The notes beneath the pieces are model-generated. The model was not told the DNA's origin. It did no database searches and saw only the letters and a list, made by a program, of their open reading frames with translations. The position numbers and the translations under genes were made by a program. 64,000 nucleotides of DNA from Spirochaetia bacterium (GTDB taxonomy: Bacteria; Spirochaetota; Spirochaetia; SZUA-6; Bin103), in assembly GCA_965198005.1 (NCBI GenBank), contig CBDAOI010000004.1:1216001-1280000 (forward strand). The letters run 5' to 3'. Positions 4,028 through 28,255 of the stretch are shown here, in pieces; positions within the stretch are counted from its first letter, which is position 1, and each line of letters opens with the position of its first letter.

Positions 4028-5836
4028 ATGAAGATATTTTTTGCAAGGACCTTCGCGGTTGCGTTGGTCCTGGTGCTGACCGCAACCGGCCTCTGGGCCG
4101 CCGGCGGCGCAGATACGGAGCCGGCAGCGGCGGCCGAGAAAGAAATGGTGCTTGACCCGTCCACCGGCAAGATGGTGACCGCGCCAGAGTATGGCGGGAC
4201 AATAACCTATGGCCGGGTCAGTTGGGCTGCGCATTCTGATGTCTGGTACATTAGTGGCTGGGCGAGCCATAACATCGGTTTGGTCAATGAGGCGCTCGGC
4301 ATCGGGAACTGGGCAATAGATAGGAGTGAATGGGACTGGCGGCTCTTAGCAGACACACCTCCATCTGCCTGGAAAGGCGCACTGGCGGAAAGCTGGGAAA
4401 CGCCCGACGATACAACCATCATCTTCAACATCCGCCAGGGCGTTCACTGGCATGACAAGGCACCGATGAACGGTCGGGAGCTGACTGCGAAGGATGTCGA
4501 ATACAACTGGCAGCGTTTATTGGGGCTGGGCAAGTTCAGTGAAGCCGGACCCAGCCTGATGGCAGGTGGCTTCCCGCCACAGGATTTCGAGTCGGTAACG
4601 GCCACCGACGATTGGACGGTCGTTTTCAAGCTGAACAAGCCAAACTTGAACGCCCTGAAGAATCTTCTCGGCCAGTGGATTGCTGTGATATACCCTCCGG
4701 AGGTCATCGAGGAACACGGCGACTACAAGGATTGGCGGAACACGGTGGGCACCGGACCCTATGAGCTGACGGACCTGGTCGCAGAGAGCTCCAGGACCTG
4801 GACCAAGAATCCTGACTACTGGGCCTACGACGAAAAATACCCGGAGAACCGCTTGCCCTATGTTGACAAGGTAATAGCCTTGTTGATGCCAGAACCGGCA
4901 ACCCGTCTGGCGGCACTGCGCGCGGGTACGATTGATCTGCTGGGCACGGCCGGCGACTCTCAATTAAGGTCTATCGACGAGGTAGAGAGCCTCCGACGGA
5001 CCGACCCCGACATTGAGCTGTGGGAGTATAAGTATCGGTCCGACAACTTCATGATGCTCGTCGGTCTGCACAGACCGCCCTGGAACGACATCCGAGTGCG
5101 CCAGGCGATGCAGATGGCACTGGACCTCGAGACCATTGTGAACACCTACTATAAGGGTGTTGGCAATGCGACTCCGCAGGGACATTTAGCCAATGATGCG
5201 CCGGGGGTTGGCACGCCATTTGAGGAGTGGCCCGAAGAGGTCAAGGCAACCTACAGGTATGACCCGGAACGCGCCGAAGCGTTGCTTGATGCGGCTGGGC
5301 TTACCCGCGGCGCGGACGGCATTAGATACACGACCAGCATGGCCTACTATGAACGGTACGATAAGAATTATGCAGAACTGGTCGCGGGATACTGGCGTGA
5401 GATTGGCGTAGAGATCAAGACGATAGACATTATGGATGGTGCACGAAGACGTGCGGCCACACAACCTGATGAGGAAACCTACAGAACGACCAACTACGGG
5501 GCAGCGGCCGTGAGGTATGCTATCCCCGCGATTATGGGGGGATTTCATTCAGATGCCGGCTGGCTATCCCCGAAAGACCCCGAATTTGATGCCTTGTTTG
5601 ACGCCGCCGTAGCCGCTACCACCCTTGAGGAGCAGCAGAGGCTGGCCAAAGAAGCAAATATGATATTGATAGAGAAGCACTGGATCATAGCTGGTCCCGA
5701 AATCCCACAGTTCCAAGCTTGGCAGCCGTGGCTCAAAGGCTATAACGCCGAAATGAGAATAGGAGATGGTGAAACCCAGACAGTCTTAGCCCGCCTCTGG
5801 ATTGACCAGGATCTGAAGGAAGCAATGGGTTATTAG
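4028..5836 (+). CDS. ABC transporter substrate-binding protein, family 5 (Dpp/Opp-like)
   Basis: Signal peptide MKIFFARTFAVALVLVLTATGLWAAG; PEYGGT, LAESWE, GTGPY, DIRVRQAM motifs; AAGGA before ATG 4028. Confidence 0.93.
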   Translation: MKIFFARTFAVALVLVLTATGLWAAGGADTEPAAAAEKEMVLDPSTGKMVTAPEYGGTITYGRVSWAAHSDVWYISGWASHNIGLVNEALGIGNWAIDRSEWDWRLLADTPPSAWKGALAESWETPDDTTIIFNIRQGVHWHDKAPMNGRELTAKDVEYNWQRLLGLGKFSEAGPSLMAGGFPPQDFESVTATDDWTVVFKLNKPNLNALKNLLGQWIAVIYPPEVIEEHGDYKDWRNTVGTGPYELTDLVAESSRTWTKNPDYWAYDEKYPENRLPYVDKVIALLMPEPATRLAALRAGTIDLLGTAGDSQLRSIDEVESLRRTDPDIELWEYKYRSDNFMMLVGLHRPPWNDIRVRQAMQMALDLETIVNTYYKGVGNATPQGHLANDAPGVGTPFEEWPEEVKATYRYDPERAEALLDAAGLTRGADGIRYTTSMAYYERYDKNYAELVAGYWREIGVEIKTIDIMDGARRRAATQPDEETYRTTNYGAAAVRYAIPAIMGGFHSDAGWLSPKDPEFDALFDAAVAATTLEEQQRLAKEANMILIEKHWIIAGPEIPQFQAWQPWLKGYNAEMRIGDGETQTVLARLWIDQDLKEAMGY

Positions 5837-5922
5837 GGGTATACTGGTTGGTCGCATCGTAGCTCCTGGTCACGCCACCGTGGCGAGCCCTGTACTTGTG
5901 AGGCGATGACTTGGGCGAACTT

Positions 5923-5959
5923 GTTGTGGGATGGCGGCCGAAACCCGCCATCCCACAAC
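5923..5959. terminator. Strong hairpin downstream of the SBP gene (terminator or mRNA stabiliser)
   Basis: Perfect 15-bp inverted repeat GTTGTGGGATGGCGG-7 nt-CCGCCATCCCACAAC. Confidence 0.6.
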
Positions 5960-6041
5960 TATTGATGCCAATTTGTCGAGCTGGAATTTCTCTTATTAGG
6001 TCAAAGTTTATTGGATCAAAGTATTGAAAAATGGCAAACTT

Positions 6042-6121
6042 GCCATTCTGGGCGACGACCCGGAAGCCAGAAAACGCAACCCTTTGAAATTACTCCGGAT
6101 TCCCGCTTTCGCGGGAATGAC
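6042..6121. repeat. REP/dRS3-like palindromic element
   Basis: GGATTCCCGCTTTCGCGGGAATGAC at 6097-6121 (ATTCCC-N8-GGGAAT core), with a degenerate opposing arm at 6042-6070. Confidence 0.7.
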
Positions 6122-6210
6122 AGAGGCTTTCAACCCGTAATTCGCGTCATGGTAGGAAATCGACGGGAAGAGATTTCAATTCCAGTCCGACGAATGATGG
6201 GCTGAATCAC

Positions 6211-7221
6211 ATGAGAGCCTATATCATCAGGCGGTTATTGCTGATGATCCCCACGCTGTCTATATTGAGCATCCTGGTCTTTCTCGCGGTCCGCTTCATC
6301 CCGGGCGATATAGTAGACAATATGGTGGAGACTATGGAAAGTATGTACATGGGGCTGGGAGTCGACATTGACCGTGAAGCTCTTGAGCGTATGCTGGGAT
6401 TGGACGTGCCTGTCTACGTGCAGTATGGACGCTGGATAGGAGTGTTGCCGACCCCTGACTGGGTTACCGGTGAGTCCCACTTCAGAGGTCTCCTCCAGGG
6501 CACCCTTGGCGAATCACTGACGGGTCGAGGGCCGGTGAAAGAGCAGATAATCAGTAGACTACCGATAACCATCGAGCTTGGTGTCATGGCAATCGTGGTC
6601 GGGCTCTTGATCGCCCTGCCCGTCGGCATCTACTCGGCGATCCGCCAGGATACGGCCGCCGACTACGTGGGGCGCGCCGCGGCCATCATCGGCCTGGCAA
6701 CACCCAACTTCTGGCTGGCCCTGATGGTCATGATCTTCCCGGCGATCTGGTGGGGCTGGGCGCCACCGATGAAGCTGATTCCCTTCACCGAAGACCCGCT
6801 GGGGAATCTCGGGGTGCTTATCATTCCCAGCCTGATTCTGGGGACGGCTGCTTCGGCAACCACCATGCGGATGACGCGCACCATGATGCTGGAGGTGCTC
6901 AGGCAAGACCATATAAGGACGGCCTGGTCCAAGGGTCTCAATGAGAGGGCAGTTATTGTGAGACACGCCATCAAGAATGCGTTCATCCCGGTAGTTACCC
7001 TGATAGGCCTGCAGTTGCCCATCCTGGTAGGCGGCTCCGTTATCATGGAGAACATATTCAACCTGCCGGGTTTGGGTCGTCTCTTCCTGAATGCACTCAC
7101 TGTCAGAGATTACCCGGTGGTCTCTGGAGTAAACCTGGTTTTATCCAGCGTCGTTCTGTTGAACAATCTATTTATCGACCTGATTTATCCTTATTTGGAC
7201 CCAAGAGTACGGTATGAATAG
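6211..7221 (+). CDS. ABC peptide transporter permease (DppB/OppB-like)
   Basis: MRAYIIRRLL..., ATPNFWL, RMTRTMMLEVLRQD..TAWSKGL, RDYP, YLDPRVRY. Confidence 0.95.
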   Translation: MRAYIIRRLLLMIPTLSILSILVFLAVRFIPGDIVDNMVETMESMYMGLGVDIDREALERMLGLDVPVYVQYGRWIGVLPTPDWVTGESHFRGLLQGTLGESLTGRGPVKEQIISRLPITIELGVMAIVVGLLIALPVGIYSAIRQDTAADYVGRAAAIIGLATPNFWLALMVMIFPAIWWGWAPPMKLIPFTEDPLGNLGVLIIPSLILGTAASATTMRMTRTMMLEVLRQDHIRTAWSKGLNERAVIVRHAIKNAFIPVVTLIGLQLPILVGGSVIMENIFNLPGLGRLFLNALTVRDYPVVSGVNLVLSSVVLLNNLFIDLIYPYLDPRVRYE

Positions 7222-7244
7222 TCGCTGGCGCGAAAGGCCCTAAT

Positions 7245-8201
7245 ATGAGCAATGCCACAGAGGCACCCTCCGCCGTCAGTGAGCCCAATCGGCGTGCCGG
7301 GCTGGCTGATTTCTTTGTCAGGCTGTGGAAGGAGAAGCCATGGGGCACTATCGGCGGGATTATCATATTGATATTGATTTTCGTGGCCATCTTTGCCGAT
7401 GTTTTGGCTCCTTATCCGTTTTGGGAAATGCACCTGGTAGACAGGCTGCAGGGCTCATCAGCCCGGTATCTCCTGGGTACCGACCAGTTGGGGCGAGACT
7501 TCCTCAGCCGCATTCTCTATGGGGCTCGTCTTTCGTTAGTTGTCGGTCTGTCAGCTACCACCGTCAATGTTGTCGTCGCTTTCCTGATCGGCGGCATTTC
7601 AGGGTTCATTGGTGGCAAATTGGACCTGGTGGTGCAACGCTTTGTCGATGCCTGGATGTGTTTCCCGGGACTGCTCATATTGTTGACGATAATGTCCATA
7701 GCGGGGCGGGGTGTGTTGCAGCTAATACTTGTTTTGGGGATATCAGGAGGCATCGGCGGCTCAAGAGTAGTCAGAGCCGCCGTGATCGGCATTAAAGAGA
7801 ATGACTATTTTCTGGCCGCCAGGGCCGTGGGCACCCCTAGGAGCCAGATCTTCTTACGACATGTGTTGCCCAATATTGTGGCGCCGATCATCATCATCTT
7901 CTCGATCAACGTTGGCGGGGTCATCATTGCCGAAGCCTCGTTGAGCTTCCTGGGATTCGGACTGCCCCTCGGCGTTCCTAGCTGGGGCGGCATGCTCAGC
8001 GGAGAGGGGCGTCAGTACATGGAGGTGGCGCCACGGCTGGCGCTCTGGCCAGGGCTTTGCCTGACGATTGTCGTCTTCTGTTTGAACATGTTCGGCGATG
8101 CGGTGCGCGACCTGCTCGACCCGCGGCTCAGAGGCTCGCTGCCAGCGGCACCACGTCGGTTTAGAAAAGCCATCAAGCAACAAGAAGCCAGCGCGACGTA
8201 A
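7245..8201 (+). CDS. ABC peptide transporter permease (DppC/OppC-like)
   Basis: LLGTDQLGRDFLSRILYGARLSL, HVLPN, EASLSFLGFG..PSWG, GDAVRDLLDPR. Confidence 0.95.
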   Translation: MSNATEAPSAVSEPNRRAGLADFFVRLWKEKPWGTIGGIIILILIFVAIFADVLAPYPFWEMHLVDRLQGSSARYLLGTDQLGRDFLSRILYGARLSLVVGLSATTVNVVVAFLIGGISGFIGGKLDLVVQRFVDAWMCFPGLLILLTIMSIAGRGVLQLILVLGISGGIGGSRVVRAAVIGIKENDYFLAARAVGTPRSQIFLRHVLPNIVAPIIIIFSINVGGVIIAEASLSFLGFGLPLGVPSWGGMLSGEGRQYMEVAPRLALWPGLCLTIVVFCLNMFGDAVRDLLDPRLRGSLPAAPRRFRKAIKQQEASAT

Positions 8202-19691: not shown

Positions 19692-20333
19692 ATGAAGCTC
19701 TGGGACGCTCACTTTCACATCTGGCCCGGTTCGGCCGGCGGGGCCGCGGGTGGCGACGCTCCCGGGTATGCGCTTGCCGACTACCAGCGGGACGTGGCCT
19801 GCGACGGCTTCGAGTTGATCGGCGGCACGTTTCTCGAGGTGACCAGCGCGCGCCTGCCCGGCACCGCCGGGGCGCCGTTCGCCGACGCGTGCGCGACCGA
19901 GACGGAGTGGGTGGGGCAGCGGCTCGGTGCGTCGCCGCTGCCCTTCGTGATGGCGGCTTCGGCGCCGCTGGAGTACGCCGGTGTCGCCGCCGTGCTCGGC
20001 AGGCTGGCGGCGGACAGCTCGATCCGGGGCGTGCGCCAGATCCTCAACTACGACCCGTCCTGGCCGCGCAACGAGCACCTCGGCGACCTGCTGGAGAGTG
20101 CGCAGTGGCGGCGCGGGTTCGCGCTGCTGGAGGAATTCTCACTGGGATTCGATCTGCAACTCAACCCGCACCAGTTCGCACGGGCGGCGCGTGTGGTGGC
20201 GGCGCACCCGCGGATCCCGGTGGTGATCGATCATCTGGGCACGCCGACCCTGGCCGACCTGCGTGCGGGCGACCGCCAGCGCCTGTTCGGCGACAACGCC
20301 ATACGCGCCTACGGGGTGGACAAGTACTGCTGA
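19692..20333 (+). pseudogene. Amidohydrolase_2 (lactonase-like) with an internal C-terminal deletion
   Basis: DAHFHIW, RGVRQIL, FDLQ, VVIDHLG, then directly LFGDNAIRAYG; the usual K.SG and FGS(D/N) segments are absent. Confidence 0.75.
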
Positions 20334-20412
20334 GCGCCCACATATCGCGAGGTCCGGGCTCCTAGGCGGCTAGGCGCGAACTGGAGTGTTGACTTTCGAT
20401 TCGTTGGCGAAC

Positions 20413-20691
20413 ATGCAGAATCCTCCCCATCCGGGCGGTGTCTTGCGAAGACAGTGGATCGAGCCTTTGGGTGTTTCCATTACCCAGGCAGCCAAGCGTC
20501 TCGGCGTGTCCCGCAAGGCGCTTTCCGAGCTGTGGATGAACATGCAGTCCAGCTATGACTTGTGGCATGCCGAGCAGCGCAGGGACGAACTCACGGTAGC
20601 ATCTCTTGTTGCGGCGGGGCGGTGCGCGGGCGGCGCGGCAGGCGGACGCGGTCAGACGCCGAGCCAGGTGGCCCGGACGTCCGGGGACTGA
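20413..20691 (+). pseudogene. higA: HigA-family antitoxin with an internal deletion
   Basis: [11 protein letters not shown]...[30 protein letters not shown]; about 25 central residues missing; no higB. Confidence 0.8.
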
Positions 20692-21368
20692 TCGAGCTGG
20701 CCGGCGGTTCCCTGCCAGCGGACGCGGCCCTTGCCGAGCACGTAGACCCGCTGCGCCAGGGCGCTCGCGAACGGGTAGTTCTGCTCCACGATCAGCATCG
20801 TCATCCCCGCCGCCTTGAGGGTCTCGAGAATGCCGGCGATGCGCTCGACCACGACCGGGGCCAGTCCCTCGGTGGGCTCGTCCAGGAGCAGCAGACGCGG
20901 GGCGAGGGTGAGCGCGCGCGCGATCGCCAGCATCTGCTGCTCGCCGCCGCTCAGCTCGTTGCCGCGGTGGCCGCGGCGCGCCGCGAGCAGCGGGAAGTCC
21001 TCGTACAGCGCCTCGGGCGTGACCCGGCGGCCGGCCGGCTGGCGCGGCCGGCCCAGGTTCAGGTGTTCGTCCACCGTAAGCGAGGCGAAGATGCCGCGGT
21101 CCTCCGGTACGTAGGCGATGCCGCGGCGGGCGACGCGGGAAGCCGACAGGTGATGGATCGGATCGCCGGCGAAGCGGATGCTGCCGCGCGCGACCGGCAC
21201 GATGCCCATGATCGACTTGAGCAGGGTGGACTTGCCGGCGCCGTTGCGGCCGAGCAGGGCGACCACCCGCCCCTGGTCCACGTTCAGGGAGACGCTCTGC
21301 AGGACGTGGCTGCGGCCGTAGCAGGTGTCGACCGCCTCCAGCCGGAGCAGCCCCGTCGTCCGGGCCAT
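20652..21368 (-). CDS. livF: Branched-chain amino acid-type ABC ATPase (LivF-like)
   Basis: [38 protein letters not shown]. Confidence 0.92.
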
Positions 21369-22213
21369 CAGGACCTGGTCCCGAGAGAGCGGGCGACGGC
21401 CCGCGCCGACTTGTTGCCGTGCGTGCTGCTGGGCGCCTTGGGCTGACCATGCCGGCTCCCACCCAGGTAGCGGCGCCGCACCTCCGGCGAAGCGCGCACC
21501 TCGGCCGGCGTCCCTTCCAGCAGCACGCGCCCGTAGTCGAGCACCGTGATCCGCTCGGCCACCCCGAAGATCACGTCCATGTCGTGCTCGATGATCAGCA
21601 GCGTCAGCGTGGACGGCAGGGCCGCCAGCAGCCTCAGGATGGCGGCGGTCTCCTCCGGACTCATGCCCGCGGTCGGCTCGTCGAGCAGCAGCACCAGCGG
21701 TTCCTGCACCAGCGCGAGCCCGATCTCGAGCTGGCGCTGGGTGCCGTAGCCGAGGGTGTCGACCCGCTGCTCCAGGTGGTCGGCCAGGCCCAGCCGCTCC
21801 GCGTGCGCCTCGGCCGCCGCCCGTGGCGCCGCGAAGCGCGCCGCCGGACGCCAGAAGACGTGGCCGATGCGGTGCTTCAGGGCGCACGCGAGGAACAGGT
21901 TCTCCCGCACCGTGAAGCGCGGAAACAGGTTGTTGCGCTGGAAGCTGCGCGCCAGCCCGGCGCGCGCGCGCACCTCCGGCGCGGCCCGGCTCAGGTCGCG
22001 GCCGCCGACGGCTACGTGGCCGGCGTCGGCCCGGACCTCGCCCGTGATCAGGTTGAACAGGGTGGTCTTGCCGGCGCCGTTGGGGCCGATCACGCCATGC
22101 CGCCGGCCGGCGGGCAGCCGCAGCGAGACGTCGTCGGTCACCAGCAGCGACCCGAACGACTTGCGCAGCCCGGTGGCGTGAAATACTTCGCCCGTCACGG
22201 CGCGGTCCGTCAC
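21368..22213 (-). CDS. livG: Branched-chain amino acid-type ABC ATPase (LivG-like)
   Basis: GPNGAGKTT, LLLDEPTAGMS, IEHDM, VRRRYLG; GTG start overlapping the livM stop. Confidence 0.9.
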   Translation of the reverse strand: MTDRAVTGEVFHATGLRKSFGSLLVTDDVSLRLPAGRRHGVIGPNGAGKTTLFNLITGEVRADAGHVAVGGRDLSRAAPEVRARAGLARSFQRNNLFPRFTVRENLFLACALKHRIGHVFWRPAARFAAPRAAAEAHAERLGLADHLEQRVDTLGYGTQRQLEIGLALVQEPLVLLLDEPTAGMSPEETAAILRLLAALPSTLTLLIIEHDMDVIFGVAERITVLDYGRVLLEGTPAEVRASPEVRRRYLGGSRHGQPKAPSSTHGNKSARAVARSLGTRS

Positions 22214-23232
22214 GGCGCGCCTCCCCGGCGCGCCGCGCGCGCCGCGCCGCGGGCCATCACTTCGCGGACCACCCAGGTGAGGCGGCCGTACAGACCGTCG
22301 CGCGCCAGCAGCACCACGGCGATGAAGAACAGGCCCATGACGAGCTGCCAGTGGGCGGCCATTTCCGCCGGTAGCGCCAGGCGGCTCCAGAAGGAGCCGT
22401 CGCTCAGTTGGTCCCGCATCAGAATGAACAGGGCGGCCCCGCCCGCGGCCCCGATCAGGCTGCCGCTGCCGCCGAGGATGACGATGATCAGGGCCTCGCC
22501 CGACAGCGTCCAGAAGGCGAGATCGGGCGACACGAAGCCGGTGTGCTGGGCCGTCAGCGCGCCGGCGAGACCGGCGAACCCGCCGGCGATGCCGAAGGCC
22601 GCCAGCTTGTAGCGCCGCACCGGACAGCCGAGCGCGGCCAGGCGGCTCTCGTTCTGGTGGATGGCGGTGAGCATCATCCCGAACGGCGACCGCCGCAGCA
22701 GCAGCAGAGCGAGGTACGCCAGCGCCGCGACCGCCACCGCCAGGGCCGAGAACACCGCGGGGTCGGCGGCCTCGAGGCCGAGCGCCGCCAGATCGAAGCG
22801 CGCGGCGCCGGCCATCCCGTTGTCGCCGCCGAAGGCGCGCGCCTTGAACAAGTAGGCGTGGACCATCTGCCCGATCGCCAGCGTGATCATGATGAAGAAC
22901 ACGCCGCCCAGCCGGACCACGAACAGGCCGACGCCGAGCGCGATCAGCGCCGCCGCCGCCACCGACAGGAGCAGCGCGCCTGCGGGTGGCCAGCCCCACA
23001 GCACGGTGGCCGCGGCGGTCGCGTACGCGCCGAGCGCCAGGAAGCCGGCGTGCCCCAGCGAGACCATCCCCGCCACGCCCACCAGCAGATCGAGACTCAT
23101 GGCGAAGATCGCCAGGATCGCGACCTCGGCGAGCAGCTCCTTGCCGAAGTAGCCGGAGCCGAACCACGCGGCCACGGCCACCCCGGCGAGCACGCCCGCC
23201 AGCGGAAGCTGGAGCGGGTCGCCCGCGCGCAT
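22210..23232 (-). CDS. livM: Branched-chain amino acid-type ABC permease (LivM-like)
   Basis: AMSLDLLVGVAGMVSLGHAGF, SPFG, ILGGSGSLIGA. Confidence 0.92.
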   Translation of the reverse strand: MRAGDPLQLPLAGVLAGVAVAAWFGSGYFGKELLAEVAILAIFAMSLDLLVGVAGMVSLGHAGFLALGAYATAAATVLWGWPPAGALLLSVAAAALIALGVGLFVVRLGGVFFIMITLAIGQMVHAYLFKARAFGGDNGMAGAARFDLAALGLEAADPAVFSALAVAVAALAYLALLLLRRSPFGMMLTAIHQNESRLAALGCPVRRYKLAAFGIAGGFAGLAGALTAQHTGFVSPDLAFWTLSGEALIIVILGGSGSLIGAAGGAALFILMRDQLSDGSFWSRLALPAEMAAHWQLVMGLFFIAVVLLARDGLYGRLTWVVREVMARGAARAARRGGAP

Positions 23233-23265
23233 CACCGGGCGCCGCGCACCGGGACCAGGCCGGCC
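23203..23265. repeat. 63-bp direct repeat, copy 1 (livH end / livM start)
   Basis: Identical to 25203-25265 except one base (GGGACC vs GGGATC). Confidence 0.95.
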
Positions 23266-23275
23266 TGGTTATAGC

Positions 23276-25174
23276 TCATTTGCCCTTCGCTGACGGACCG
23301 GATCCGGGCGCGCCGTGGGTTCGCGCGCGTAGCCCCCTTCCCTGTTCCGTCAGCCGATACTTCTGCAGCCGGCTGCGCGGTTTGTGGGGAATGGTCATTT
23401 CGAGCAGTCCTTGCGTGATGGCCGGTTGTTGGTAGGACTGCCTGAAGTGTTTTTCGTCTGTCAGCGCCAGCTTGGCCTGGATCTGTCTTCGGCTCATTGC
23501 GCCTTCTACGACGGATAAGAGCTTCACGACTTCGGGGGTCACATCGGGGATGACTTCGGGGTTGTCTTGGGGGTTGTCTTCGGGGGTCGCGGTGTTGTGG
23601 CCTCTTATTCGTGCTGACGGCCCTGTACCAGCCGCGCCGCGGGTTCGCGCGCGTAGCCCCCTTCCCTGTTCCGTCAGCCGATACTTCTGCAGCCGGCTGC
23701 GCGGTTTGTGGGGAATGGTCATTTCGAGCAGTCCTTGCGTGATGGCCGGTTGTTGGTAGGACTGCCTGAAGTGTTTTTCGTCTGTCAGCGCCAGCTTGGC
23801 CTGGATCTGTCTTCGGCTCATTGCGCCTTCTACGACGGATAAGAGCTTCACGACTTCGGGGGTTACATCGGGGATGACTTCAGGGTTGTCTTCGGGGGTC
23901 GCGGTGCTGTGGCCTCCTGACTGATCCCTTTCCGCCGACGCCCGCGCCGGCGGCTCCGACCGCCACACGCGCGCAACGAATACGTCCGTTACCGTGAACT
24001 CCGGTTCCGGCAGGCCGGCCGCCACGCAGCGGCGGATCATGTCGAGCGTCCCCGTCCCCATCCGTTCGATGTAGTTGACCAGATACATCGACTCCGCCAA
24101 CAACGGGTTGGCGGGCACCGACGCGTGGGGCGCGCGCAGCTTCTCGAAGGTCAGCGGCGGCGGCAGACTGCCGGGATTCCAAACCTCCAGCCGGTCGGCG
24201 AAGAGCATAACCTGGACGCTGCCGTTGCTCGTGTAGTCGCGGTGGGCCACCGCGTTGACGACGGCTTCGGTCACGACCTCCTCGGGAATCTCGTAGGTGC
24301 GTGGCGCCTGGGCGCTTTCCGACCTCGTACCGATGGCGCGATTGATCTTGCTGAGTACGAAGTCCACCGCCTGATCTACCAGCTCGAACACCGTGCCCTG
24401 ATACACTTGGTAGGAAGGAATCGGCTTTTCCACCTCCGTCCCGTGAAAATGGGCGCACTTGATCTCGGACGAGAGGAGAAAGCGTTGCGGAGAATTTCCG
24501 AACAGCAGGACGGCGGCGTTGGTGAGACGTCCCTTGTTCAGCAGCCTCAGGTGCTCCAGCAACGCATCGGGCGACGTTTCCTCGGGCAGAGGAAACTGCC
24601 TTATCCGGCGCGCCCCACGAACGAAGCGGGCCATCCACGCGGAGTCGAGATCGCCGAACGTAGCACCCTCGCAGGGGGTCGCGTCGAAAGGCCCGAACCG
24701 GATCCACTCCTTGACCTCAAGGTACTCCACAAGCGCTGCGTAGAGTCCGGTCACCAGTTCCTGCGCGGTATTGCACTGCTTGCGGATCACCCCGGACTCG
24801 GCGCTGCGGATCAGCGCAGCCATCTTCCGATGCCGGGTGTCGTCAGCAGCGCCTTTCACGAAGATCAGGCGATGCTTGCCAAGTGCCGTCGCATGGCGGT
24901 ACTCCCGCTCGGTTGGCGACACGCCTTCCTGATCCTCGGTTCCGTCCTCGCTCCCGAACAACCCCACGTAGATGTCCGAGTGCTCGACTTCATGCAGATA
25001 GAGCGCATCCGGCCGCCGGTCCGCCGCCGGGGCGTCCTCGAACAGGAACACGTCAAAGAAGCGCCGCATCAACGGGTCTCCGCGCAGGTAGTCGCGGAGC
25101 GCCGCCCGCTGCGAGGCGAACTCTCCTTGCACGCTGCTGATGAAGATACGGATGGGAGTCACTGGCCGTGTCAT
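23276..25174 (-). CDS. DUF4062 + Schlafen/RecG-C-associated ATP-binding (HATPase_c_4-like) domain + duplicated C-terminal winged HTH
   Basis: IFISSVQGEF..QR, DIYVGLFG, SPTEREY; EAVVNAVAHRDY, DRLEVWNPG, NPLLA, IERMGTG; MTIPHKPRSRLQKYRLT occurs twice. Confidence 0.85.
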   Translation of the reverse strand: MTRPVTPIRIFISSVQGEFASQRAALRDYLRGDPLMRRFFDVFLFEDAPAADRRPDALYLHEVEHSDIYVGLFGSEDGTEDQEGVSPTEREYRHATALGKHRLIFVKGAADDTRHRKMAALIRSAESGVIRKQCNTAQELVTGLYAALVEYLEVKEWIRFGPFDATPCEGATFGDLDSAWMARFVRGARRIRQFPLPEETSPDALLEHLRLLNKGRLTNAAVLLFGNSPQRFLLSSEIKCAHFHGTEVEKPIPSYQVYQGTVFELVDQAVDFVLSKINRAIGTRSESAQAPRTYEIPEEVVTEAVVNAVAHRDYTSNGSVQVMLFADRLEVWNPGSLPPPLTFEKLRAPHASVPANPLLAESMYLVNYIERMGTGTLDMIRRCVAAGLPEPEFTVTDVFVARVWRSEPPARASAERDQSGGHSTATPEDNPEVIPDVTPEVVKLLSVVEGAMSRRQIQAKLALTDEKHFRQSYQQPAITQGLLEMTIPHKPRSRLQKYRLTEQGRGLRARTRGAAGTGPSARIRGHNTATPEDNPQDNPEVIPDVTPEVVKLLSVVEGAMSRRQIQAKLALTDEKHFRQSYQQPAITQGLLEMTIPHKPRSRLQKYRLTEQGRGLRARTHGAPGSGPSAKGK

Positions 25175-25202
25175 CTTATCGCGGCCCCGAGCAGGCCGCG
25201 AC

Positions 25203-25265
25203 CGGAAGCTGGAGCGGGTCGCCCGCGCGCATCACCGGGCGCCGCGCACCGGGATCAGGCCGGCC
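25203..25265. repeat. 63-bp direct repeat, copy 2
   Basis: Exactly 2000 bp from copy 1. Confidence 0.95.
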
Positions 25266-26110
25266 GGCTTGAGGAGCAGGATCAGCGCCATCAGGGCATA
25301 GATCGTCACCCGCGCCAGCTCCGGCACCACCACCTGGCCGTAGGTGTCGGCGACGCCGATGATGAGCGAGCCCAGCGCCACCCCCTTGAGGCTGCCGGGA
25401 CCGCCCAGCACCACCACGATCAGCGCGAGAATCAGCACCGACGTGTCCATGCCGGGGAAGATCGAGAACACCGGCGCCGCCACCACCCCGGCCACGCCGG
25501 CGAGCAGGCAGCCCAGGCAGAAGACGAAGAAGAACACGCGCCCGATGTCGATCCCCAGGGCCGCCACCATGGTGCGGTCGTCCACTCCGGCGCGCACGAT
25601 GGCGCCGAGGCGGGTCCGTTCCAGTCCCAGGTACAACAGCAGGAACACCGCCGCGCCCAGGGCGATGATGAACAGGCGGTAGGTGGGATACACTTGTCCC
25701 AGAATGGTGCTGCGTCCGGCGAGCAGTGCCGGTACGTCGATCACGTGCGGCAGCGAGCCCCAGATCAGGTCTGCGGTCTCGGACCCGACGAAGATCAAGC
25801 CGAAGGTCACCAGCACCTGCCGCATCGGGTCGGCGCGCTGCAGGTGGCGCAGCAGCACCAAGTAGAGCAGCCCGCCCAGCACGGCTACGCCCAGGGGAGC
25901 CAGCAATAGGGCGAGCCAGAACGAATCGAAGGCGCGCACCGCGCTCAACGCCAGGTAGGCGCCGACCATGAACAGCGTGCCGTGCGCGAGGTTGATGAAG
26001 TTCATCAGTCCGAACACCACGGACAGGCCGATCGACAGCAGGAACAGCAGTGCCGAGAGCTGCAGCCCGTTCAGGGTCTGCACGATCAGGAACTGGGGAT
26101 CGAGCAGCAT
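25232..26110 (-). CDS. livH: Branched-chain amino acid-type ABC permease (LivH-like)
   Basis: GLSVVFGLMNFINLAHG, RTRLGAIVRA, VVVLGGPGSLKG, KPAGL. Confidence 0.93.
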   Translation of the reverse strand: MLLDPQFLIVQTLNGLQLSALLFLLSIGLSVVFGLMNFINLAHGTLFMVGAYLALSAVRAFDSFWLALLLAPLGVAVLGGLLYLVLLRHLQRADPMRQVLVTFGLIFVGSETADLIWGSLPHVIDVPALLAGRSTILGQVYPTYRLFIIALGAAVFLLLYLGLERTRLGAIVRAGVDDRTMVAALGIDIGRVFFFVFCLGCLLAGVAGVVAAPVFSIFPGMDTSVLILALIVVVLGGPGSLKGVALGSLIIGVADTYGQVVVPELARVTIYALMALILLLKPAGLIPVRGAR

Positions 26111-26262
26111 GGCGCGCCGGTTGCTTCCGGCGGCGCCACCCTACCACGCCTGCATCCGCGGCGCAGCCCCGCCGCCCGCCCGCGCCCCCGCCCGCCCGCA
26201 CCCCAACCGATCCGGCCGCGCGGCGGTGGATTCTCGGGCGGTTTTACGGCCACTGTACCGGC

Positions 26263-26592
26263 ATGGAAATGCGTCTGCTGTTCGATGTGCTGGGATGGAT
26301 CGGCACGGTCTCCCTGCTCAGCGCTTACTGGCTGGTTTCCACCAACCGGGTCGGTGGAACCTCCCGCTTCTATCAAACGCTGAACGTGATCGGCGGCGGC
26401 GGTCTGCTGGCCAATACCTTCTATAACCGCGCCTACCCGGCCGCGGCCCTCAATCTGGCCTGGCTGAGCATCGGGGTCACCGCCTACATCCGCGTGGTGG
26501 TCCGGCAGCGTGCCCAGCGCGCGTCCGGCCGCGCGGAAGGCGCGTCACGGCGCCGGCCCCGTCCGCGGCGCCCGCCCGGCCGCGAACGGTAG
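26263..26592 (+). CDS. Small membrane protein (CBU_0592-like)
   Basis: LGWIG...LSAYWL...YQTLN..G...AYPAAALNLAW; three short hydrophobic helices. Confidence 0.7.
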   Translation: MEMRLLFDVLGWIGTVSLLSAYWLVSTNRVGGTSRFYQTLNVIGGGGLLANTFYNRAYPAAALNLAWLSIGVTAYIRVVVRQRAQRASGRAEGASRRRPRPRRPPGRER

Positions 26593-26753
26593 CGCTGCAT
26601 CATTGCGGTTCAACCTCGGCGATGCCCAGGCGATTCCGATGATTCGTCAGGGCTGTTGCCTCGCTTGCCCACAAGCGGTAGAGTCGCCGGCAGTCAGCAC
26701 GGCTGCACGCAGCCGCAGTACCGAAGGCAGCAGCAGTACCCAAGGAGGAGCCC

Positions 26754-27062
26754 GTGCCACCACCCGTAGCCCTCAAGCTGACCGCCCGTGACAACGTGGC
26801 CACCCTGGTCGCGGCCGTCGAGCCCGGCGGCACCATCGCCGTACGGCACGGGCGCGAGCAGACCTCCGTCGCCGCCGGCGAGCGGATCCCGTTCGGGTTC
26901 AAGGTCGCGCTGGCCGACATCCCGCGCGGCGCGCAGGTCGTCAAGTACGGCGAGTCGATCGGCTTGGCCTCGGCCGACATCCCCACCGGCGCGCTGGTGC
27001 ACGTCCACAACCTGGAAGGCGCCCGCGGCCGCGGCGACTTGGCGCGGGGAGATACGGCATGA
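26754..27062 (+). CDS. SAF-domain small subunit of a UxaA-family dehydratase/sulfo-lyase
   Basis: DNVAT, IPFGFKVAL.DI..G..VVKYGESIG, VHVHN. Confidence 0.9.
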   Translation: MPPPVALKLTARDNVATLVAAVEPGGTIAVRHGREQTSVAAGERIPFGFKVALADIPRGAQVVKYGESIGLASADIPTGALVHVHNLEGARGRGDLARGDTA

Positions 27063-28255
27063 CGTTCCTCGGCTATCCGCGGCCCGACGGTTCGGTCGGC
27101 ATCCGCAACTACGTGCTGGTGATACCGGGCGGGCTGGCCGGCGCCAAGATCTGCGACTTCGTGAAGGGCACCAAGACGCTTCCGGTGGCGCCCGACACTT
27201 GGTCCGACCACACCAGCCGCGACCGGGAAATGTCCGCCCGCATGCTGATCGGCCTGGGGCGCAACCCCAACGTCGCCGCGGTCGTGATGCTCGGCGCGCG
27301 CACCGGCGCCCACTACGACGAGCTGCACCCGGTGCGGCTGGCCGACGCGATCGCGCAGTCGGGCAAACGGGTCGAATTCCCGGACAACCGGGGAGGCGGT
27401 ACGCTGGAGGGCATCGCGCAGGGCATAAAGCTGGCGCGTGAGATGGTGCACGAGGCATCGAAGATCAGGCGCGAACCGTGCGACCTGAGTCACCTCACGC
27501 TGGGCGTGAAGTGCGGGGCATCGGACACCACCTCCGGCCTGGCCGGCAATCCCGTCATCGGCAGCCTGTACGACCTGATCGTGGCGGCCGGCGGCACCGC
27601 GATGCTCGGCGAGAACACCGAGCTGGTCGGCGCCGAGCAGGTCCTGAGCACACGCGGCGCGACTCCGGAAGTGGCGCGCCGGATCGTCGCCGTGGCCGAG
27701 GAATCGGAGGCGCGCGCCAAGGCCACCGGCGAGGACATCCGCACCATCAACCCGGTTCCCGCCAACATCGCCGGCGGCATCTCCAGCCTGGAGGAGAAGT
27801 CGCTCGGCGCCATCGCCAAGTCGGGCACCGCACCGGTGCAGGGAGTGCTGGCGTACGGCGAACGGCCCCCCGGCAAGGGGCTGTACTTCGTCGACAACAA
27901 CCCGGGCATGGGCATCTTCACCGGCTACGCGGCGGCGGGGGCGCAGCTCGTCATGTTCCAGTTCGGGGGCGGCGGCGTCGGCGCCAAGGGGGACCGGGAG
28001 GCGCTGTTGTCCACCTCGCCCGGCATCGTCGCGCCGATGCTGTGGGCCACGGCCAACCCCAATACCCTGGCGATGGCCGAGAACAGCATCGACTTCTTCT
28101 CCGGTCCGGTGCTCGCCGGCGACGAGACCGCCGCCGAGGCGGCCGAGCGCCTGCTGCAGCTCGTGCTGGACATCGCGTCCGGCACCCTCACCAAGGTGGA
28201 GACGATCCGGCATACCGAGCCCACCCAATTCTACTTCAAGGACCCGATCTTCTGA
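27059..28255 (+). CDS. UxaA/GarD/SuyB-family large subunit
   Basis: GYPRPDGSVGIRNYV, KCGASDTTSG..GNP, GGISSLEEKSLG...KSG. Confidence 0.9.
   Translation: MTFLGYPRPDGSVGIRNYVLVIPGGLAGAKICDFVKGTKTLPVAPDTWSDHTSRDREMSARMLIGLGRNPNVAAVVMLGARTGAHYDELHPVRLADAIAQSGKRVEFPDNRGGGTLEGIAQGIKLAREMVHEASKIRREPCDLSHLTLGVKCGASDTTSGLAGNPVIGSLYDLIVAAGGTAMLGENTELVGAEQVLSTRGATPEVARRIVAVAEESEARAKATGEDIRTINPVPANIAGGISSLEEKSLGAIAKSGTAPVQGVLAYGERPPGKGLYFVDNNPGMGIFTGYAAAGAQLVMFQFGGGGVGAKGDREALLSTSPGIVAPMLWATANPNTLAMAENSIDFFSGPVLAGDETAAEAAERLLQLVLDIASGTLTKVETIRHTEPTQFYFKDPIF

Follow-up and report, generated by a model that had tools for sequence, protein, structure and literature searches.

The embedding of defence genes within the operons of other defence systems is a published pattern, described for type I restriction-modification (RM), BREX, DISARM, and Hma operons (bioRxiv 10.1101/2024.01.29.577857). 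Among the genes embedded in Hma operons 3.1% are mobility-associated (10.1101/2024.01.29.577857), and an example from Vibrio is TgvAB, which is embedded in an operon of type I RM (PMC11411939). Many defence genes are found within other operons with no mobility gene. A locus in a 64,000-nucleotide stretch of a Spirochaetia bacterium genome (assembly GCA_965198005.1, contig CBDAOI010000004.1, positions 1,216,001 to 1,280,000; hereafter the window), together with its look-alikes in other organisms, gives a readable footprint of such embedding. At this locus a single gene of predicted defence function (the cargo) is located between livH and livM, two permease genes of an ABC transporter operon, and is flanked on each side by a copy of the livH/livM junction. 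In this footprint the end of a neighbouring gene occurs twice, and its second copy serves as a short relay frame that preserves the native stop/start overlap; it suggests the rule that between overlapping genes only junction-duplicating insertions survive. The liv locus itself would be a case in which a housekeeping transporter operon has taken up a defence gene and retained it across two genera.

The cargo family is similar to the genes embedded in RM operons in that its members typically lie on the same strand between RM genes, often with overlapping stop and start codons. Most embedded genes are free of mobility genes. In contrast, the copy described here resides in a transporter operon and not in a defence operon, and this liv position is an unusual feature of this cargo copy. 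Junction duplication and relay open reading frames (ORFs) are also not mentioned in the available text of 10.1101/2024.01.29.577857 or PMC11411939, and no description of either around embedded genes was found in the literature, to the extent that the texts were available.

The cargo begins with a DUF4062 domain, which is reported in three 2026 preprints to be a TIR-like NADase domain of single-gene anti-phage systems, namely Swarozyc (10.64898/2026.05.01.722283), Evangelion (10.64898/2026.06.25.731849), and NIR (10.64898/2026.09.04.749371). In Evangelion a conserved motif is made up of a Glu-Tyr pair, in which the Glu is putatively catalytic, and an aromatic residue at about position 11 (10.64898/2026.06.25.731849). 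Like Swarozyc and Evangelion, the cargo combines an N-terminal DUF4062 domain, with Phe11 and Glu91-Tyr92 (F11, E91-Y92), with a variable auxiliary region, part of which is a winged helix. It differs from them in that this auxiliary region is made up of a Schlafen-type/HATPase_c_4 ATPase and a Fic-like_C winged helix-turn-helix (wHTH), and in that its NADase role is predicted. No description of the DUF4062, HATPase_c_4, and Fic-like_C architecture was found in the available portions of the DUF4062 preprints.

Taken as a whole, the locus is best explained, with a probability of roughly 0.6, by a single recombinase-free insertion of an RM-operon defence gene that was subsequently inherited with the operon and later converted in the analysed genome. 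This explanation draws on the anatomy of the locus, the boundaries shared by its carriers, the equal divergence of cargo and host genes, and the recurrence of the layout in other loci.

Structure of the Duplicated livH/livM Junction

The analysed genome (G000) comprises 4.9 Mb in four contigs (C3 and C4 among them), and the cargo is flanked in it by two 63-bp direct repeats (Table 1). An earlier note made from the letters of the window (the sequence-only reading) had described these repeats as identical at 62/63 positions and exactly 2000 bp apart, which both a repeat search and an alignment bear out. The copies differ by one substitution and zero indels, with a longest exact stretch of 52 nt, and the central 20-mer of the repeat has at most two occurrences in the genome. 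The genes livH, cargo, and livM and both ABC ATPase genes are all encoded on the minus strand, and the stop codon of livH overlaps the start codon of livM as TGATG. Because this overlap is contained in both repeat copies, both permease genes are complete; the earlier claim that the junction had been duplicated with both host genes left whole stands.

The insert is essentially one ORF. A domain search of this ORF revealed no transposase or integrase domain, and none of 23 inverted-repeat pairs joins both ends of the insert, in line with the unit lacking recombinase and terminal inverted repeats that had been read from the sequence. The cargo occurs once in the 4.9-Mb genome. Approximately 13-28 nt separate the older duplication (see below) from the cargo ATG, and approximately 10 nt follow the cargo stop; a search of 20000-27200 returned no sigma-70-like promoter, and the cargo borders have no terminator-like site. 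The 16-bp palindrome pointed out in the sequence-only reading does exist and does include the mismatch. It is not conserved in G004, a second carrier of the insert, and for this reason it was rejected as a recombination site and no function is assigned to it.

Table 1. Features of the liv locus in G000, given in coordinates of the window.
Feature	Coordinates	Strand	Remarks
livH-like ABC permease, 292 aa, first operon gene	25232..26110	-	BPD_transp_2 4.7e-35; UrtB 173 bits vs cut-off 250
livH stop TGA	25234..25232	-	overlaps next ATG as TGATG
Junction copy A: functional livH 3' end + non-functional livM-start copy	25203..25265	-	upstream in gene direction
Relay mini-ORF1, 18 codons + TAA, MRAGDPLQLPVAACSGPR	25176..25232	-	from duplicated livM ATG; read 25232..25176, stops 1 nt short of cargo ATG
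Cargo gene, 632 aa	23276..25174	-	DUF4062 head, Schlafen-type/HATPase_c_4 ATPase, two Fic-like_C wHTH modules
In-frame tandem duplication in cargo, period 324 bp	23289..23897	-	copies 23289-23573 and 23613-23897, 96% identical
Relay mini-ORF2, 15 codons + TGA, MSYNQAGLVPVRGAR	23232..23279	-	ATG overlaps cargo stop (ATGA); stop overlaps livM ATG (TGATG)
Junction copy B: non-functional livH 3'-end copy + functional livM start	23203..23265	-	downstream
Older ~88-bp duplication around copy B, approximate	23186..23273	-	partner 25186-25273; deduced from G004 comparison
livM-like ABC permease, 340 aa	22210..23232	-	BPD_transp_2; UrtC best NCBIfam match, under cut-off
livG-like ABC ATPase	21368-22213	-	ABC_tran, BCA_ABC_TP_C
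livF-like ABC ATPase	20652-21374	-	ABC_tran; completes operon
16-bp palindrome ACCAGGCCGGCCTGGT at insert/copy B border	23254-23269	.	spans the one mismatch; built on conserved GGCCGGCC of livH codons

Age and Inheritance of the Insertion

The family comparison covered 24 species genomes (labelled G004, G012, G020, and so on), with the liv operon recovered in 20. The cargo is found at the livH/livM junction in 4/24 of these genomes (4/20 with the operon recovered), namely G000 and G004 in one genus and G020 and G021 in another, and the boundaries are the same in all of them. The border before the cargo is alignable between G000 and G004 as '...CTGCTCGG...ATAAGATGAC', the border after it reads 'AATGAGC.ATAACCA' in these two genomes, and related forms of both borders are present in G020 and G021. 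No integrase-bearing larger form was found at the liv junction in the 24 genomes.

The divergence of the cargo follows that of the operon. Nucleotide identities for cargo and liv genes, respectively, are 88.5% and 87.9% between G000 and G004 (four-fold-site identity 0.68 vs 0.71), 84.4% and 83.0% between G000 and G020 (0.61 vs 0.58), and 81.8% and 83.2% between G004 and G020 (0.53 vs 0.61). On these sequence comparisons there is no sign of a recent cargo transfer among these lineages. The sequence-only reading had envisaged a 63-bp target duplication and a unit that could excise between its repeats. An insertion common to two genera, with diverged repeats, does not support a 63-bp target duplication of recent date, and the equal divergence of cargo and liv genes, down to their four-fold sites, gives no hint of recent mobility; no evidence of an active mobile element was found. 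The cargo is intact in G000 and G004 and is decaying in the genus of G020 and G021. The G020 copy (L026, G020:C4; L numbers denote extracted loci) is broken, at 5291-6978, by an IS110-family element (DEDD_Tnp_IS110 and Transposase_20, 461 aa), and in G021 fragments only are left.

The two junction copies have a history of their own. Left and right copies agree in 61/90 columns (~68%, with indels) in G004, in 59/95 in G020, and in 50/93 in G021, the last being equal to the shuffle mean. Local-alignment scores of the copies are 131 (G000), 49 (G004), 30 (G020), and 23 (G021), compared with a 99th percentile of 27 for a null of mismatched flanks. This scoring by local alignment was used in place of an exact-seed flank search, which was too insensitive and missed even the known G004 case. 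The similarity of the G004 copies spans from ~8 nt before to ~17 nt after the position of the 63-mer, and since it reaches beyond the 63-mer on both sides the original duplication would have been ~88 bp. Weaker similarity is also retained beyond the 63 bp in G000 (3/8 nt before, 12/18 aligned columns after), with a sharp fall in identity from the 62/63 of the core; this had escaped the sequence-only reading, as had the second relay ORF and the 324-bp tandem duplication in the cargo. The non-functional halves of the G000 copies hold functional-type sequence: the livM-start copy before the cargo encodes MRAGDPLQLP, which is the N-terminus of G004 livM, and G004's own livM-start copy has decayed. 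The simplest reading of these sequences is that the 63-bp near-identity in G000 reflects gene conversion, or continued concerted evolution, inside an older duplication. Because the core would have been homogenised by gene conversion, the near-identity of the copies does not date the insertion. The liv insertion is real, old, and fixed, with a recent, putative conversion tract, and it cautions that near-identical flanking repeats can mean gene conversion and not recent insertion.

The junction itself varies among the relatives. The TGATG overlap is common to a 15-genome clade that contains all four carriers, with G021 having CGATGA instead; in an outgroup clade of the same genus (G001, G005, G006, and G007; L112-L115) livH and livM are separated by a 13-17-nt spacer and have no overlap.

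Relay Reading Frames

Each junction of the G000 locus brings a stop codon and a start codon into overlap or to within a few nucleotides, the chain being TGATG, TAAgATG, ATGA, TGATG. This is a termination-reinitiation layout, and equivalents are present in G004, G020, and G021. ORF2 follows the livH frame through the copied livH end (…AGLVPVRGAR, then stop). Both mini-ORFs are found in all four carriers (ORF1: 18, 18, 20, and 20 codons; ORF2: 15, 19, 15, and 16 codons); their peptides have diverged and the stop/start overlaps have been kept. In G020 and G021 ORF1 terminates in ATGA on the cargo start. The exception is G004, in which ORF2 ends 10 nt beyond the livM ATG. As judged from the sequences, the cargo and livM would be translated by termination-reinitiation along the mini-ORF chain, and the two relays probably keep all three genes translated. 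The sequence-only reading had recognised the 18-codon mini-ORF that ends 1 nt before the cargo ATG and had proposed that it could couple cargo translation to livH. The mini-ORF is present as described, and the coupling idea holds at the level of sequence, now with the second relay added and with both relays kept in four carriers. ORF2 starts with 'MS', like the HsdR-type ORFs that follow the cargo elsewhere, which is a hint, though not a demonstration, that the cargo may derive from an HsdR-type operon.

The Cargo Protein and Its Family

The cargo had been described from the sequence as a DUF4062/ATP-binding/HTH protein, and domain searches agree. DUF4062 (PF13271) is matched with E = 3.2e-17, above the cut-off, HATPase_c_4 with 8e-19, and the Fic-like_C wHTH in two stretches. 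The middle region is weakly matched by Schlafen-type/ATPase proteins and, in PADLOC, by Argonaute-associated proteins, with no named system being called; NCBIfam has no family for the cargo. F11 is conserved in 83/84 homologues and E91 in 84/84, and F11 and E91-Y92 match the positions of the aromatic motif and the Glu-Tyr pair of Evangelion. These sequence features suggest that the cargo is a NADase/anti-phage-type gene. The 324-bp duplication doubles the C-terminal winged-helix module, which is present as one copy in G004, where the open frame is 537 aa long. Swarozyc uses its winged-helix auxiliary domain to bind the phage portal (10.64898/2026.05.01.722283), and by analogy the doubling of this sensor part in G000 might matter functionally.

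Cargo homologues are widespread in bacteria and archaea at 55-75% identity, and no copy closer than 72% amino acid identity was found in 80 metagenome loci. Among 72 tight upstream neighbours (same strand, ending <=60 nt upstream of the cargo) N6_Mtase is found 19 times, HsdM_N 16, Methylase_S 14, and ResIII 13, and among 88 downstream neighbours HSDR_N is found 18 times and Methylase_S 10, all ORFs in these counts being simple longest-ORF calls. By the same ORF calls, the stop of the upstream gene and the cargo ATG share a 4-nt overlap in 42 loci, and the cargo stop lies within ATGA in 57/150. The cargo family is characteristically embedded in RM operons. Unlike the family, the G000 copy lies between two BPD_transp_2 permeases and so not within an RM operon.

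The linker between the ATPase and the winged helix contains short tandem repeats in several family members (L077, 7226-7499; L174, 4226-4301 and 4939-5003; L195, 4190-4346), with units of 9-21 or 11 nt or a spacing of 114 nt, which suggests that this linker is a fast-changing low-complexity region.

Recurrence of the Layout in Other Loci

Flank repeats were scored in 81 rows from species genomes (including the four liv-site carriers and with one place in G012 entered twice) and in 71 further rows, most of them from metagenome loci, the rest being a few family paralogues and one control (L004). Several of the 71 further rows show flank repeats, and the layout is found in at least four contexts besides liv. 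In L195 a full hsdR (EcoEI_R_C) is followed after 8-9 nt by the cargo, a 53-codon relay, ATGA, and hsdS, with a repeat of 154 bp at 89%; L172 has the same order up to the ATGA and then its next gene, with a repeat of 131 bp at 82%. The relay in both loci is opened by the ATG in the cargo's ATGA and repeats, in frame, the final ~50 codons of hsdR, and L180 has the same hsdR-cargo-relay layout with a 63-codon relay. A second context is hsdM. In L051 and L155 hsdM, ATGA, cargo, and ATGA are followed by a 24-codon relay homologous to the hsdM C-terminus, a further ATGA, and the next gene, and in L146 an HsdM_N gene, ATGA, and the cargo are followed by a 17-codon relay that copies the end of the HsdM_N gene, ATGA, and the next gene. 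In L174 and L175 the cargo is preceded by a type III res gene and followed by 116 bp that duplicate the 3' region of res at 91%, for which no relay beginning with ATG was found. Finally, L214 (1-6004) contains two modules in tandem, one of them 'hsdS end - 820-aa gene - hsdR start' and the other 'hsdS end - cargo - hsdR', with repeats of 73 bp (95% identical) and 60 bp (83%); such modules fit the product expected of a circularised fragment integrating by one crossover. Repeat lengths in these other contexts are 48-154 bp, and every readable relay is in frame with the duplicated gene end. The relay ORF may consist of the start codon that remains in the cargo's ATGA, joined to a duplicate of the 3' end of the gene upstream.

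At the protein level, 11/64 rows with a tight upstream neighbour exceed the 95th percentile of the null; one of these, L181, was set aside as a weak low-complexity match. Flank duplicates also accompany other embedded genes, which include a NucS_C-like gene (L060), a REase-ARP nuclease (L169), an ATPase (L077), and unknowns (L057, L214). In several loci the cargo is followed by a stub of 12-92 codons that shares the N-terminus of long HsdR-type ORFs; this pattern-level reading suggests that cargo fragments travel with pieces of former neighbours.

A search for a second case within G000 returned 162 isolated repeats of 30-160 bp, six of which have a long ORF ending in copy 1 and a long ORF starting in copy 2. 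No analogous case was found elsewhere in G000 among these 162 candidate repeats (four of the five other flagged ones inspected), and the expectation that similar cases exist elsewhere thus failed for this genome and held for other organisms. Three of the inspected candidates look like local paralogues, and C3:876698 is a duplicate of a 1.16-kb gene with a decaying copy, set aside as a local rearrangement. The candidate C4:1458351 was set aside on its alanine-rich repetitive sequence alone.

Proposed Mechanism and Alternatives

An insert can part two overlapping genes only if it comes to have a copy of their junction on either side. A recombinase-free route combined with selection is favoured because a gene placed between overlapping genes requires a duplicated junction. 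It is proposed that a promoterless defence gene from the RM-operon family was inserted once into the livH/livM junction, in an ancestor of the two spirochaete genera, by illegitimate, template-switch, or homology-facilitated recombination that left ~88 bp of junction on both sides. The duplication of the junction would have created the two relay mini-ORFs. Ribosomes would end livH, restart on ORF1, and end ORF1 at the cargo ATG; they would then end the cargo at ATGA, restart on ORF2, and end ORF2 on the livM ATG. The insert would subsequently have been inherited with the operon, decaying in some lineages and being lost in others, and the central 63 bp of the G000 copies would have been homogenised by gene conversion. 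Candidate routes, all of them rare and recombinase-free, include a homologous anchor in the upstream gene combined with an illegitimate join in the recipient's copy, two illegitimate joins, a template switch, and a single crossover of a circularised fragment, with selection retaining those outcomes that leave the two flanking genes, and the coupling between them, intact. Recombinase-free events filtered in this manner would be expected to leave repeats of variable length (48-154 bp), non-identical copies, no recombinase, and in-frame relays. The sequence-only reading had put forward an undescribed route for placing defence-like genes in housekeeping operons; a recombinase-free route into operons is made plausible by the recurrence of the layout.

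Homology-facilitated or illegitimate integration of foreign DNA in bacteria was reportedly described in 2002 by de Vries and Wackernagel and by Prudhomme et al. Such an event would give a full gene A, the cargo, a leftover 3' end of gene A, and gene B, with variable and non-identical repeats, as is found in L195, L172, L051, L155, and L146. The liv case differs in that ~17 codons of livM are duplicated as well, which needs two illegitimate joins or a template switch. Microhomology at the liv joins is unreadable after divergence, and the exact route of recombination at liv is likewise unreadable because the copies have diverged too far.

Several observations weigh against the proposed single insertion. 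The duplication of ~17 livM codons ahead of the cargo means that one-anchor homology-facilitated recombination does not explain the liv case. On the liv tree the carriers are dispersed, with a minimum of four changes, and the insert of G020 is missing from G013 and G017, whose liv genes are 97% identical to those of G020. Purely vertical inheritance would therefore call for precise losses, or replacements by empty alleles, several times over. The GC content at third codon positions (GC3) is 0.77 in the cargo and 0.93-0.95 in the liv genes, which is weak amelioration for an old insert. The duplication is undetectable in G021 and marginal in G020, so that 'one event' for these two genomes rests on position and border similarity. 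Both the translation of the mini-ORFs and the gene conversion are steps that we infer from the sequences. No flank repeats were found in the 77 other species-genome rows (best score 26), and scores >=40 were obtained in 9/134 cargo rows and in 11/351 other long ORFs of the same loci, the rows not being independent of one another; with these control ORFs in view, the rate of flank duplicates is not special to the cargo.

A broader interpretation, which we regard as doubtful, is that junction duplication with an in-frame relay ORF is a general signature of the embedding of promoterless defence ORFs between overlapping genes and perhaps reflects a dedicated mechanism. The cargo and a neighbour-gene end would then form a recombinase-free cassette that is moved by host recombination between homologous operons and rarely into housekeeping ones, and the G000 repeats would keep this cassette excisable.

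It is also conceivable, if unlikely, that the cargo and one junction copy form a recombinase-free cassette that excises as a small circle by host homologous recombination between the repeats and re-enters empty livH/livM junctions, or homologous gene ends of RM operons, by a single Campbell-type crossover, which would render it mobile both within relatives and from one to another. The 62/63 repeats of G000 would permit RecA-dependent excision, the patchy distribution (at least four changes) is in keeping with movement, the tandem modules of L214 are as expected from a circularised fragment, and the 82-91% identity of the repeats in other loci is what copies from a donor and a recipient would show. 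Direct repeats on both sides of the insert are likewise a feature of Campbell-type integration. In contrast to such integration, no circle was seen, there is no replicon or transfer function, and cargo and host genes have co-diverged, four-fold sites included. Excision is unlikely in three of the four carriers because their repeats have diverged, the cargo is single-copy in G000, the best match in the 80 metagenome loci is no closer than 72% amino acid identity, and a 2-kb non-replicating circle has no obvious route between cells. No circle or empty-site form was shown by the contigs of public runs, which are short and cannot phase the 52-nt exact repeat. A single joint (X3, depth 2, side 21 nt) links 23134 to 25296, which is not the expected 2000-bp empty-site joint and probably comes from a relative without the insert. 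A 541-nt contig of X4 spans 23092-23632, and at 23255 some contigs have the T of the other copy; as the repeat is not phased, neither was used as evidence.

The cargo also resembles an integron cassette, as it is a promoterless single ORF reliant on upstream expression signals. However, the ~10 nt from its stop to the repeat leave no room for an attC site, as judged by spacing, IntI is absent, and the repeats flanking the liv insert are copies of host genes. That the repeats are att sites of an integrative element whose integrase was lost or acts in trans is very improbable. Direct repeats that rebuild gene ends do resemble the attL and attR of elements entering gene 3' ends, but the insert is essentially one ORF with no recombinase domain, tyrosine or serine, the liv genes are found on both flanks, and the target differs in each context (liv junction and hsdR, hsdM, and type III res ends) along with the length of the repeat. 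The IS110 element inside the G020 cargo is a later event, and a larger integrase form is missing from the 24 family genomes.

A recent transposition-like insertion with a true 63-bp target-site duplication is hardly credible. Near-perfect repeats exactly flank one gene, as such an event would leave them, but the same insertion with diverged repeats is found in another genus, and the similarity of the copies continues past 63 bp. Unlike a DDE transposon or insertion sequence, the insert has no transposase and no terminal inverted repeats, and its duplication (~88 bp here, 48-154 bp elsewhere) is not of fixed length. Finally, a repeat-induced misjoin that put the cargo in the operon during assembly has a negligible probability. 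The 52-nt exact repeat does exceed the word length of short-read graphs and is not phased by the public-run contigs, but G000 is assembled in four contigs and the assemblies of G004, G020, and G021 place the cargo identically with diverged repeats that cannot cause a misjoin.

Host Operon and Repeats at Other Sites

The host operon fits the LIV-I/HAAT type: a pair of BPD_transp_2 permeases comes first and two ABC ATPases after it, with a BCA_ABC_TP_C tail on one ATPase. The names livH and livM are used loosely, as the best NCBIfam matches are UrtB and UrtC, permeases of urea transporters, and the UrtB, UrtC, LivH, and LivM models all score under their cut-offs for the host permeases. No binding-protein gene was identified adjoining the operon. 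A second-site copy of the cargo is present in G012 (83% DNA identity), between a DUF6772 gene and citrate synthase; it has neither the C-terminus nor a flank repeat and therefore says nothing about the donor.

One region of G000 contains a further pair of repeats (L120, G000:C3:875198-884560), which are perfect over 91 bp (1501-1591 and 7772-7862). A 1.16-kb gene (6717-7873) has an internally deleted second copy at 988-1602, ~5 kb off, with blocks that are 94-97% identical. In six relatives this gene is single-copy and directly beside the left-hand gene. There is no integrase domain between the copies, and because part of the intervening DNA is located 5-6 kb away in relatives, the region has the look of DNA rearranged and duplicated locally, not of an insert from outside. 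The same region includes a repeat of ~290 bp (4341-4632) that is found in at least five more places in G000 (e.g., C4:411223-411516 and C3:978706-978999). Several copies at 93-95% identity are present in G000 and its relatives G001, G003, G005, and G006, and the repeat may be a small non-autonomous mobile element.

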